Below, piece after piece: positions 11,987-61,595 of a stretch of DNA of 64,000 nucleotides. Numbering within the stretch: the first letter of the stretch is position 1; each line of letters begins with the position of its first letter. The stretch is from the NCBI GenBank assembly GCA_964016885.1, contig OZ024741.1, positions 313,410,001-313,474,000 of the forward strand, read 5' to 3'. A model generated the notes under the pieces. That model searched no databases and had not been told where the DNA came from. It was given only the letters and a program-made list of their open reading frames with translations. A program made the position numbers and the translations under genes. Source of the DNA: Eledone cirrhosa. Lineage: Eukaryota.

Positions 11987-12121
11987 AATGCCGAGCAGGA
12001 ACGTTAGGTGTTGCTTGTAATGGGACATGCCATTGTATCAACAGCATAAACTGTGACAAGCGAAATGGAACATGTTCAGATGGATGTTCTGCAGATTATA
12101 CTGTTGCCAATTGGCAAGAAG
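11987..12121 (+). pseudogene. EGF-like exon A1 (dead)
   Basis: [45 protein letters not shown]. Acceptor is TG instead of AG, donor is AT instead of GT, and the last Cys is Trp. Confidence 0.85.
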
Positions 12122-12304
12122 ATATCTCATAAAATTATTACATACTTACCACACACACACACACACATACACACCACTACATACACGCACCAACACATAC
12201 ACACACACACACACATACACGCAAATGCACTCACACACACACACACACACATATATGTATATATATATATATATATATATATATATATATATTTTAATAT
12301 ATAT

Positions 12305-14381
12305 AGTTATACTTGAGGAGGGTCATATTGTAATCATCTTGTCAGAAATAATAACAGAGCACACACACTCGTTGGTTGGTTTTCGCTTTTGTAAGTTTTA
12401 TATCTCCATAGTTAATTCATTTGGCAATCAATGTCTATCATTGATTGACCAAAGGTAAAAAATAGAGATATAAATACATATATATAGTCTAAAAAAGTTC
12501 TTTCGTTGCACATCTGCCACATCATCACTGGTACTTTTATGTATCCCTCCTGTTGTATTGCAAGTCTACGCCATTTTTATTTTATCTGTTTATTTATTTA
12601 TTTTTATTTATTTTTGTCTTCGTCCCTGCGCATGCGTTTGCGTGTGTATATAGTGTTTGGTGTGTGTGTTCGCGTTTGGGTGACTGTGTTTTGATTATTG
12701 TATTCTATCTTAGTTTATTAGTGTGTCTTTATATGTGTTTCTTGTTATTGTGCTTGTGTATTTATTCATTTATTTATTTATTTATTTATATTTCTCTTAA
12801 GTCAGTATTGTTTGTTTGGGTGATGTTATTCCATTCATTTTTTCTGTTTAGCTTTGTCTTTTTAAGCTCTGTTTCGCTTACCTCTTTGATTTGCCTACGC
12901 GCTGGCTCATTTCTATGTTTAGATATTATTTTAATTTCTGTGTTGTCTATGTTACCGTCATGCTGGTGTCTGGCATGTTCGTAGGTACTGTACCTTTTTT
13001 TTTTCTTTCAATTCCCTCCAATATTGGTCTATACTTTCTCCTATGCATCGAGCTCTCTCGCCTGTGTATGGTGTTATCATGTTTATGCATGTACCCTCTG
13101 TATATCTTATGCTATAGACTACTTTTCTAGTTTTACAGTTTATCTGGGGGTTTATTTTACATATAGTACATTTCTTATTAGTACAGTGTGTTTTCTTAAA
13201 AGGGTGTGATTTGCAGATCAGTGATTCCATGGTAGTTCTCGGTTTTTCTAAAACTTTAATCTTTAAGTGGGTCTGTATCTGGGTCTTTCTACATTGGTTA
13301 GCTAATTTCCCTCCAGGGGTAGCGTCCACGAACATGACACTCTGGTATCTCTGGTTGTGGTACCATGAGGTGGCTTTGCCTATCTTATGTTTAGTACTAT
13401 CTAAGCTATTCCATGATTTGCTACTGTATAATGGGAAAATTCCTTTCATCTCCAGTTCTATGAGTGTCTTACACTTGTCAGTGGTTCCTTTGTATACTCT
13501 GATTCTGTCTCTTTGGTTGTAGCCAGAGAAATGCCTGCGCTTTATGAAGTGTTGGATGTGTCTTTCCATTTCCTTTGGATCGCACATGCGGCACACGTTC
13601 GTCATCACTTGTACCAAGTCTGCGATCACTGTATTAAACTTATCACTACTTAACATTGCTGAGTATTTGAGTAACAGGTATTTGGAGGCCATGGGTTTAG
13701 CGCAGTGTGAGTGGGGAATTTGGGCCCTCTCGTATATAGTGTTAATCCAGAATTCCATGTCTAATACAGGTAGTCTATTATTAGGGTGATGGGAAGGGTA
13801 TTCAATAGTTAGTTATATTCTGCTGTATGGAGTTAGCTATCTGCTGGATTATTTCCATTGTGCTATATCCTATTTTTTATTCGTTAGTACTCTCTTGTGG
13901 CGGTGTCCTTATTACTATATTAATATTGTCTACTTAAGGAGAGTACAGGATGAGGTCTATGGAGCTCTCTTCAAGGAGTTTTTGAGTCTCATTTCCCACC
14001 AAACCATAAAAAGGCTGGCAACATCACCAGCTATGCTGATCTAAATGGCTGCTGTCTCATTTTGAGTGTAGATATTTACGTTGAATTTGAATATTGGCCC
14101 TTTAGGGTAGTTTTAATACTAGCCCCCATTACATGCGCGACCATATTTCTTACCTGAGCATTGTTTTTGGATGTTGGTATGACTTTAGTCTACCCAATTC
14201 ACCCTCCCATGGGAGTCTTTTTTGCCCTTGAGGTTATGGTAGTGGGTCTACCATTGTTGGTTCTACTAGGGAAGAAACTGCTAAGAACACGGCTGTCTAG
14301 TTACTCGATGTCATAGGTAAGTCTAAGTAGGAGGCCCAGTTCATCTGTGTCGACGTCGCAGACCTCAACCTCACTCTCACA
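12305..14381 (-). mobile_element. PLE family 3 subfamily fragment after exon A1
   Basis: Minus-strand RT thumb and GIY-YIG remnants (ORF 12958-13758). The same position is occupied after every A exon. Confidence 0.85.
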
Positions 14382-14969
14382 GTAAAATTATATATATGTA
14401 AAAGGTAAACAGAAATAACAAGACAATCGGTACAGTATATGGAAGGGATATATTAGGTTAACGTTTGATATAGCCGGAATAGGGTCTTAGCATTTTGGAC
14501 ATTAGTCCTTCATTAGAAGAAAGGATGAGAAATAAAATAGATTGAGGGGACAGTTGGGTTGGAATTAGAAAAAATGTCCTTAGATAAAGATAACAGGTTC
14601 ATTCATGTTGACATTTCTTTCAGTGTTTGTATGTATGTGTGTGCGTGTGTGTTTATTTAAATGTAAGAAAGTCGCAATTGCATATCGTAGTAACTGGTAG
14701 AATATGGTAAGATTTGGAAGGATTATATATGTTGTTTTTCTTATAATATTGTTTGTTTATTTCATAATGTTTTTTTACCATTGCATTTAACAGAACTAAA
14801 AATCCATGTATACTTTATAGAGGATCGATTTCATTTTCAATAAATATATAAGTTCATATGTTTATCACTAGAAAAATATAATCTGAAAATTTCGTATGAA
14901 ATTGTTTCATTGATATCTGTAAGTAATTAATGATATCTTCAACATTATCATATATATTGATAGTTTTAG

Positions 14970-15104
14970 AATGCCCAGCAGGAACGTTTGGTGTTGCTTG
15001 TAAAGGGATCTGCCATTGTATCAACAATATTAACTGTGACAAGCGAAATGGAACATGTTTAGATGGATGTTCTGCAGGTTATATTGGTGTCAATTGCCAA
15101 GAAG
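14970..15104 (+). CDS. EGF-like exon B1 (135 nt, phase 1-1) of a multi-EGF protein gene
   Basis: ttttag|AATGC...GAAG|gtatct; [45 protein letters not shown], 8 Cys. Confidence 0.85.
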
Positions 15105-59761: not shown

Positions 59762-59806
59762 AGTCACTGAGGAGTTCACAGAGTATGTGACGAAAGAACT
59801 ATGACT
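59762..59806 (+). ncRNA. Type I hammerhead ribozyme (PLE family 3)
   Basis: agtca-CTGAGGA-gttcaca-gagta-tgtgac-GAAA-gaac-TA-tgact. Predicted cleavage after 59801. Confidence 0.75.
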
Positions 59807-60498
59807 ATATACAAACAATTATCTGGTTGTGGAACCAACCAACCAACCAGAAATTTATAGATTTATAAATTTATTATAAATTTATTATAATAAATTGAAG
59901 TGAAAGCAACTGGTGCGTGTGTTTCTTATTGGCAACATGACCCTCCCAAAGTATAACATATATGTGTATATATATATATATATATATATATATATGTATA
60001 TATATATATATACACTTATATATACACCCTATATGCCGGTGAAAAATGTGATCCACTGCATATGTCGACCCATCAAATATGTGGTGTAATTCAGGTTGAA
60101 GCCTATATAAACCGGTTGATACGAGACCCCAGGTATAAGCCATTACCATCTGCCCAGCCGTAGATATGCTTGCCGTTAACAAAAAGATTTAACTGAACTG
60201 TTTTATTAGTAAACAACTTGCTACCACCCCGTCACTTGATATGCGCATATTTTAAAAACCTAAATATTCCTTATCCAATTTGTATCGTTATTACGTAGCG
60301 ATATGATTTTCCTTTCCACCTGTTTTCTTTCGTGGGGAAATTACCGGAGAATTTCCGATAGTTTAGATAATTCAGTGAATGAGTATACCATTCATATTCT
60401 AACTATGATATTCATGATAATATTATAGATATATATGTGTGTATATATGTAAGTATGTATGTATTTATGTATGTATATATGTATGTTTGTATGTATGT

Positions 60499-61107
60499 CT
60501 GGTCACCAGTTGGTGCTACTGGTAACATGTATCCCAGTACAACCTGTCTCATGGTCGGGTCGTTGGCGACTAAACTGGCAATCCCACAAAGGTTTCTTTG
60601 TGAGGAGGGTGATTTTGGACATCCTGCAGGACTAAAAACAAAACCTGTCAAAGGGCAAAGGAGCTCTTAGGAGTCAATGGCCATCCGAAATCACCGGGAG
60701 AGATGACCCCTTAGCCTTTGTCAAGGCAGAATTCTAGGAGAAGGAAAACTCGGATAAACACCTGCAACCCTGATGGTATCCAATGATGTTGACTTGTTCT
60801 TCTTTTTGGTAAATATCATCTTGGTTAAGAGAGAGGGACTATCTTTGTGCAGTGCCATTGCTCACTATAAAAGCTTCACGGCACAGGCATTGCTTTATAT
60901 CTGGAGATCTCTCTGCACTTGTCATCACATGGTTCCATGGGCCCAGCACTATGTGTCAATAATTGTCACAAGTGTAGTGTTTGTACCAGAGTTTTCAAGT
61001 CACTGGCTGGACTAAAAAGTCACACTCGTTCAGCGCATCGGTAGGGGTTCTCCTACATGGATATAAAGTAGTGGCCGTACTCGAAAAAAACGAGTTGGCA
61101 GCCACCA
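60499..61107 (+). mobile_element. Non-coding retroelement sharing the RTE 3' tail (SINE or internally deleted RTE)
   Basis: 3' end tggccgtactcg..gagttggcagccaccatgtatg resembles the RTE end tggccatactcg..gagggggcagccatcatgtatg. Flanked by (TATG)n. Confidence 0.6.
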
Positions 61108-61460
61108 TGTATGTATGTATGTATTTATGTATGGATGTGTGTGTGTATGTATGCATTTCTATATATACAGTATATAATATATATATTGTAGAATATGGTA
61201 ATATTTGGAAGGATTATATATGAACATTTTTCCCATAATATTGTTTGTTACTTTCATAACTTTATTAACATTGCATTTAATTGAAGTAAAAATCCAAGTA
61301 TTTTGTTATAAAGGATCGATATAATATTCAATAAATCTCCAACTTCATTTGATTAGCACAAGTCCACTTTAATCTTGAAATTTAATATAAAATTCTATCA
61401 TTGATATATGTAGGTAATTAATGATATCTTAAACTTTATCATATATATTAATAAATTTAG

Positions 61461-61595
61461 AATGCCCAGCAGGAAAGTTTGGTGTTGCTTGTGATGGGAC
61501 CTGTCATTGTATTTACAACGCGAACTGTGACAGGCGAAATGGAATATGTTTACATGGATGTGCTGTAGGCTATACTGGTTTCAATTGCCAAGAAG
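61461..61595 (+). CDS. EGF-like exon C4 (135 nt, phase 1-1)
   Basis: tttag|...GAAG|gtatgt; [45 protein letters not shown], translated by hand. Confidence 0.83.

Follow-up and report, generated by a model that had tools for sequence, protein, structure and literature searches.

The closest described systems to the locus reported here are receptor clusters of the snail Biomphalaria. In excerpts of two reports, these clusters encode single-pass proteins with a signal peptide, Tie2/SCARF-type EGF repeats and one transmembrane (TM) segment, most LG5R genes have a small tail without a known domain, and mapping places the clusters in regions linked to schistosome resistance (PMC13712769); in SudRes1, MEGF domains are encoded by 10 of 23 genes (PMC12297450). 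Snail haplotypes differ in gene content and in EGF domains, and the diversity of these multi-EGF clusters is described there as one of gene number and allelic difference (PMC13712769, PMC12297450). Here we analyze a 64,000-nt stretch of the 3.0-Gb genome of Eledone cirrhosa (C2:313,410,001-313,474,000, C2 being contig OZ024741.1; hereafter the window) that holds 11 copies of one EGF exon and lies within a predicted gene of 922 kb. We hold with moderate confidence that this is a mollusc multi-EGF (SCARF/MEGF-like) single-pass receptor gene, with 156 tandem exon copies and a product whose length is varied by module skipping.

Like the LG5R and SudRes1 genes, the gene belongs to a set of clustered paralogs and combines a predicted signal peptide, SCARF/Tie2-type EGF modules, one TM segment and a tail without a known domain. 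It differs from them in its 96 intact EGF exons (5-13 in its own paralogs), in a 253-residue acidic repeat tail, and in having no galactose-binding or phosphatase domain. Three word-based homologue searches, which covered proteins of 78-2,000 residues and of which one gave no match, returned Octopus sinensis multi-EGF proteins as the best matches (64-68% identity per module), followed by bivalve and gastropod ones. The O. sinensis gene LOC115219456 and its neighbours (P0001, P0008 and P0023) combine galactose-binding and EGF domains, to which the first two add TM and protein tyrosine phosphatase (PTP) domains. Annotated isoforms of that group skip whole modules, but its genes alternate two module types and include F5/8C and PTP domains, whereas a single module type is found here; for the F5/8C part of P0001, this genome gives its best matches at C2:257.6 and 261.9 Mb, outside the gene. 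The mollusc GBD-MEGF receptor phosphatases differ likewise, as the gene has no plus-strand F5/8C exon and no PTP domain.

Individually, the modules match the EGF regions of SCARF1 (chain 8hna, E 3.6e-8) and Tie2, and they also match Atlas clusters (0.93) in which laminin-EGF and PEAR1-like families occur on 32% and 20% of members, all in keeping with the original prediction of a SCARF, MEGF or mollusc multi-EGF module. Single exons score below Pfam cut-offs, and AlphaFold folded one module with a predicted local distance difference score (pLDDT) of 62 and a predicted template modelling score (pTM) of 0.34. MEGF10/Draper/CED-1/PEAR1 and SCARF1 share the 8-Cys laminin/PEAR1-type module, the single TM and the type I topology; their module counts are roughly 7-17, and the gene has several times more. 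In contrast to MEGF10/Draper/CED-1/PEAR1, it has a 253-residue tail free of tyrosine, which excludes NPxY and ITAM-like (immunoreceptor tyrosine-based activation) motifs. Nor did we see an EMI-type exon: with the profiles used, none of them for EMI, only EGF copies follow the leader, and paralog Y has no candidate for an open phase 1-1 exon in its first intron of 3.2 kb. Judged by its predicted parts, the gene has the tested features of mollusc single-pass SCARF/SREC-like receptors, and by analogy it may bind scavenger or pathogen ligands.

Arthropod Dscam1, as excerpted in PMC13428168, also places many duplicated exons between shared constant exons. Here, by contrast, a scan of exact complements gave no excess that would point to docking sites, neither a steric block nor a frame penalty was found, and the EGF modules are of a normally chained kind whose relatives skip modules and do not swap them. 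Clustered protocadherins have a promoter and leader for each variable exon, unlike the single leader in 922 kb here. Symmetric domain exons amplified in tandem, often in higher-order blocks, are known from Drosophila Dumpy, human LPA kringle IV-2 and the Olduvai domains of NBPF, which are alike in their length variation through tandem exon amplification but unrelated in domains or architecture. Because very large repeat-exon genes are thus known elsewhere, the gene represents runaway expansion within a kind of mollusc receptor already known rather than a new category. We found no description of such a cephalopod gene in literature searches that left most subscription journals outside their scope, nor in the excerpts of PMC9334734 and PMC13428168.

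To place the window copies in context, we read C2:312.61-314.27 Mb continuously, together with C2:315.45-315.65 Mb and two stretches of C10. An array at C2:313.103-313.931 Mb (0.83 Mb) contains 156 plus-strand and 2 minus-strand copies of the EGF exon. Of the 156, 60 are broken and 96 retain both an open frame of 135 nt and AG/GT ends; 92 of these 96 splice-competent copies have eight or more cysteines. The competent copies comprise 76 distinct DNA and 69 distinct peptide sequences, the peptides differing on average at 10.6 of 44 residues; many array copies are exact or near duplicates. An 18-base exon pattern had 177 matches in the genome (153 + 24) against 5 (3 + 2) for a reversed control, so the window copies are not due to chance. 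No second array of this size was found, the other pattern matches being spread over a C10 cluster and the C2 neighbours, though diverged arrays would escape such a search.

The window holds 11 of the 156 copies (Table 1). The original prediction had placed all 11 exon starts correctly, and our results also agree with it on the length of 135 nt in ten (the exception being 50113), on AG acceptors in all except the first copy, which has TG, and on the seven exons that keep AG/GT and all eight cysteines. Its claim that all copies are phase 1-1 stands for those same seven, which have an open frame (14970, 16444, 30296, 36814, 46169, 53748 and 61461), but not for the four whose AT donor makes them unusable as such (11987, 25697, 33323 and 50113). 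Of the 8-Cys module, 11987 and 33323 keep seven cysteines, and 50113 has a deletion and stops. A profile scan of the window yielded no copy beyond the 11, and tblastn and module profiles found no further host exon type in it, as had been claimed; the DNA between the exons consists of transposons and microsatellites. By identity the copies fall into three classes, in the block order A-B-C / A-C / A-B-C / A-B-C, with class A always dead, and the class-C exon at 30296 is possibly decaying, given its donor and glycine changes. Reading through the donor of the class-B exons meets a stop after three codons (window 15105-15115, 36949-36959 and 53883-53893), and intron retention with early 3' end formation there would yield a secreted EGF chain.

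The gene occupies C2:313,089,081-314,011,385 (922 kb, plus strand) and extends far past both window ends. Its leader exon, a predicted signal peptide as judged by hydrophobicity, was found by a scan for hydrophobic phase-1 first exons, and its TM exon by comparison with paralogs after generic-rule TM scans had missed it. Leader, 156 copies, TM exon and tail follow one another in order on one strand and in compatible phases; leader and TM exon are each single within the 922 kb, and the TM and tail junctions are common to paralogs. The tail has a basic start, 40% Asp+Glu and no tyrosine, and the predicted protein would reach ~4,636 residues if all 96 competent exons were used. Profiles and tblastn from seven homologs detected no plus-strand F5/8C or PTP exon between leader and TM exon, and the 72 PF00102 matches all fall outside C2:310-316 Mb. 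The proposal that the exons form an expanding ectodomain is thus upheld by a single-pass receptor gene model; where flanking exons had been suggested, a leader, a TM exon and a tail were found, but not a PTP exon. A candidate arrangement in which the array is antisense inside a minus-strand F5/8C gene was dropped once the plus-strand leader, TM exon and tail had been found.

Selection was assessed on the 137 of 156 copies that are near full length with flanks (124 unique), leaving out 19 fragments or shortened copies. Changes were mapped by parsimony on lineages classed by splice sites alone, and homoplasy and gene conversion make the counts approximate. Splice-competent lineages carry 7 cysteine losses or stops against 391 neutral (synonymous and flank) changes, compared with 13 against 78 in splice-dead lineages (p 4e-6); such losses are about ten times rarer where splicing is competent. 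Glycine and aromatic sites of the motif show the same pattern (17 against 391 and 13 against 78, respectively; p 9e-4), and a tree built from flanks only agrees (p 2e-6 for cysteines and stops, 8e-6 for glycines and aromatics). Among present-day copies, 79 of 86 competent ones keep all cysteines and the frame, versus 9 of 38 dead ones. Cysteines and open frame are therefore under purifying selection only where splice sites survive, and the far lower rate of such changes there indicates that the exons are translated now or were lately.

Elsewhere in the module, positions change at least at the synonymous rate and no more than in dead lineages (p 0.5), and pairwise nonsynonymous to synonymous ratios (dN/dS) among intact copies are 0.98. 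The disulphide frame is thus selected in spliced copies, while the surface is free to vary. Positive selection was not detected against synonymous sites (p 0.5), p values of 0.004-0.01 arising only with flanks pooled in, and a test for gene conversion between copies gave 35 of 500 permutations. Copies with AT donors are the largest class among the splice-dead lineages. The first five bases of these donors are the first five of the U12 (minor-spliceosome) consensus; U12 use was considered and rejected, as bases +6 to +8 misfit and splice-dead lineages lose cysteines about neutrally.

The array has grown by tandem duplication of multi-exon blocks, which carried dead exons and transposon pieces along. 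Self-comparison of the window shows multi-kilobase blocks duplicated together with Penelope-like fragments; two such blocks are 87% alike and older than the units downstream. There, a higher-order repeat with a unit of 22-23 kb contains seven copies per unit (four intact, three broken), with adjacent units 96-98% alike, and upstream of the window lies a run of 2.6-kb units that are 96-100% alike. Unequal crossing-over may have generated the blocks. With 135 nt and phase 1-1 everywhere, gain, loss or skipping of copies would be free of frame cost, so that the array could freely grow and shed them. Near the array ends, at C2:313,191,384 and 313,907,326, lie the two minus-strand copies, which are damaged EGF exons inverted together with their flanks. 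Their median similarity to sense copies is 80% and 72% (best matches 240-520 nt); in a pre-mRNA they would be antisense to all sense copies and could form RNA duplexes with any of them.

How such an array would be spliced can be approached from its introns and from annotated relatives. Introns between intact exons have a median of 5.0 kb, all 96 competent exons are 135 nt with GT-AG ends, and donors are mostly the non-consensus GTATCT, GTATAT or GTATTG. Three relatives with isoform sets, out of six clusters looked up, were available for comparison as RefSeq models. In the O. sinensis gene 4 of 6 isoforms lack one to four whole modules, as do 5 of 5 and 5 of 7 in two Magallana gigas genes, so that 14 of 18 skip whole modules and none of the 18 swaps one for another. 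As chaining appears unhindered and relatives skip modules, cassette skipping on a mostly chained array is the likeliest pattern. The original prediction that symmetric exons can be skipped without frameshift accords with this annotated skipping; its comparison with Dscam is not supported: no steric or frame basis for mutually exclusive choice was found, nor an excess of exact complements that would point to docking sites, and those isoforms contain no swapped module. Sequencing run X1 covered introns and exons alike on a two-exon stretch, in many diverged pieces; it is therefore DNA and shows no splicing, it is possibly not independent of the assembly, and its depth is not usable as copy number. 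Runs X9 and X19 gave no alignment on that stretch, and X17 gave short intron pieces only.

Taken together, most intact exons would be chained, with cassette skipping, into a very long rod of EGF modules that would reach ~4,600 residues should every intact exon be included. The modules carry 1.7 N-glycosylation sequons each. In the weakest step of this reading, the heavily glycosylated rod may serve recognition or adhesion at the cell surface, most likely as a tether or spacer, since there is no lectin head, no tyrosine and no phosphatase. Because the tail lacks both tyrosine and an enzyme domain, the receptor would be expected to signal little alone. We infer a recognition or adhesion role, to which the snail clusters would add, by analogy, a link to immunity.

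Several points weigh against this reading. The gene is known here from DNA alone, its expression and splicing pattern being predicted; 60 of the copies are broken; and a 200-N assembly gap at C2:313,344,137, between leader and window, parts the leader and 33 copies (25 intact) from 123 copies (71 intact), the window and the TM exon. The annotated isoforms are gene models, which can be mis-aligned over repeats, and they belong to relatives that differ in architecture and have far fewer modules. An array of 96 exons is also far beyond the module range of those relatives, and the possible RNA duplexes with the two antisense copies are a further complication.

An alternative that we hold to be unlikely is that all 96 competent exons are always included, giving a constitutive giant of ~4,600 residues for which only allelic copy number varies. 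The intact exons are all in frame, selection acts on them as a class, no special splicing signal was found, and the longest annotated isoforms of relatives do chain all modules; however, the great majority of isoforms of these smaller relatives already skip, and the non-consensus donors, together with near-identical dead acceptors, should favour skipping. More doubtful still is a novel design in which skipping ranges freely over long distances among 96 modules that are interchangeable (69 of them distinct), with the antisense copies as possible guides and single cells displaying different module strings on one common anchor. If true, it would offer cephalopods a route to immune or neuronal receptor diversity from one gene.

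We regard as quite improbable a Dscam-like choice of one or a few of the 96 exons per transcript from a library of 69 alternative modules. The single leader and single TM exon that flank all copies (with one assembly gap), the sequence differences among the 69 peptides, the fixed framework with other positions changing at least at the synonymous rate, and antisense copies that could pair with any sense copy would all fit such a scheme. Nevertheless, the shortest intron between intact exons is 682 nt, which leaves no steric block; at a multiple of three nucleotides, double use carries no frame penalty; and all donors are GT. Exact complements between consensus flanks and the first or last introns were not in excess (9-87 of 100 shuffles reach the observed value; G-U pairs and bulges fell outside the scan). 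Relatives' isoforms swap no modules, change at the variable positions does not significantly exceed that at synonymous sites, and many copies are exact or near duplicates.

Very little probability attaches to a recently silenced or dispensable gene, a satellite-like by-product of runaway tandem duplication that is now decaying: although more than a third of the copies are broken, dead class-A exons were amplified together with live ones and most exons of the neighbouring paralog C are broken, the competent copies are clean far more often than the splice-dead ones, and leader, TM exon and the 253-codon tail are all open. Least probable of all is a mis-joined scaffold, or two or more genes, with gap sides from different paralogs and leaders or TM exons hidden in the gap; the gap does adjoin near-identical 2.6-kb units (one pair 100% alike) in a cluster of at least 21 leader copies, but strand and exon subtypes continue across it, and the gap-free right side, with one TM exon and no leader inside, itself holds enough copies that the giant array stands either way.

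The gene is one of a family. The same leader gave 40 scored matches among 53 candidates, hence at least 40 copies, of which 21 lie at C2:310.3-315.3 Mb, 18 at C10:25.8-27.3 Mb and 1 on a small contig; by these sequence features the two leader clusters represent a large multi-EGF single-pass gene family. All nine C10 EGF matches of one search have a same-strand leader 2-15 kb upstream. Paralogs X, Y and B are built the same way, their EGF exons numbering 5, 12 and about 13, respectively, and two C10 paralogs (5 and 12 EGF exons) end in a common block that includes the TM exon. An inverted leader twin at C2:313,012,078 heads a minus-strand EGF series of about 13 copies with the same layout, head to head with the gene and 77 kb from it.

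Remnants of related architectures occur nearby and elsewhere. Just past the 3' end of the gene are F5/8C remnant exons at C2:314,017,0xx and 314,022,658-912 (minus), the second truncated, and a 'first-type' EGF exon lies 1.19 Mb from them at C2:312,828,596 (minus), in the minus-strand twin. In a paralog at 315.46-315.52 Mb the same exons are 7 kb apart, and intron homology to it suggests an older gene split by rearrangement. C16, C20, C22, C23 and C27 together hold 27 F5/8C exon matches that closely resemble one another, many of them scoring equally; they are often 100-250 kb apart, most have an EGF exon nearby, and they are likely a very recent segmental amplification. Whole PTP domains lie in long open frames at C22:17.64 Mb, C14:9.15-9.16 Mb and C10:12.09 Mb. 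PTP genes elsewhere are exon-split, and the single-frame copies, in frames of 927-1,254 codons on C14 and C22, are possibly retrocopies.

Table 1. EGF exon copies of the window (window positions) and terminal exons of the gene (C2 positions)
Feature	Position	Strand	Remarks
EGF exon copy, class A, dead	11987..12121	+	TG acceptor, AT donor, 7 Cys
EGF exon, class B, intact	14970..15104	+	AG/GT, 135 nt, 8 Cys
EGF exon, class C, intact	16444..16578	+	AG/GT, 135 nt, 8 Cys
EGF exon copy, class A, dead	25697..25831	+	AT donor, 8 Cys kept
EGF exon, class C	30296..30430	+	AG/GT, 8 Cys; donor -1 is T; two motif Gly changed to Val
EGF exon copy, class A, dead	33323..33457	+	AT donor, 7 Cys
EGF exon, class B, intact	36814..36948	+	AG/GT, 135 nt, 8 Cys
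EGF exon, class C, intact	46169..46303	+	AG/GT, 135 nt, 8 Cys
EGF exon copy, class A, dead	50113..50232 (120 nt)	+	15-nt deletion, stops, AT donor
EGF exon, class B, intact	53748..53882	+	AG/GT, 135 nt, 8 Cys
EGF exon, class C, intact	61461..61595	+	AG/GT, 135 nt, 8 Cys
Leader exon	C2:313,089,081-144	+	ATG + 21 codons, hydrophobic core, phase-1 donor GTAAGA
TM exon	C2:314,007,700-805	+	phase 1 to 2
Last coding exon	C2:314,010,623-314,011,385	+	phase 2, 253 open codons then stop

Transposon remains in the window are varied. A decayed Helitron at 452-4652 (minus) has PIF1 helicase and Helitron N-terminal matches, and a long terminal repeat (LTR) retrotransposon at 37731-42682, with broken gag/pol frames and an integrase match, lies between two 95.7% similar direct repeats (37731-38007 and 42406-42682). 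Penelope-like pieces, with reverse transcriptase and GIY-YIG, lie at 6126-6906, 12807-14343, 26503-28176, 34247-35666, 50918-52735 and 56181-59963; one follows every class-A exon and was duplicated along with the block, and 56181-57515 and 58627-59963 are inverted copies 96.5% alike. A LINE-type (long interspersed nuclear element) reverse transcriptase fragment at 19299-21641 contains a 383-base internal duplication.

Within a family of at least 40, this member has about ten times as many modules as the paralogs that were read through. Its live and dead copies, side by side, constitute a rare internal control for selection, and the gene offers a direct test of how the spliceosome copes with some 100 nearly identical exons interspersed with 60 decoys. 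In an annotation built from short reads, a gene of this kind would be collapsed or broken up. Should skipping turn out to be cell-specific, the array would give cephalopods a new way of diversifying receptors; otherwise it would still be an extreme case of birth and death at the level of the exon.

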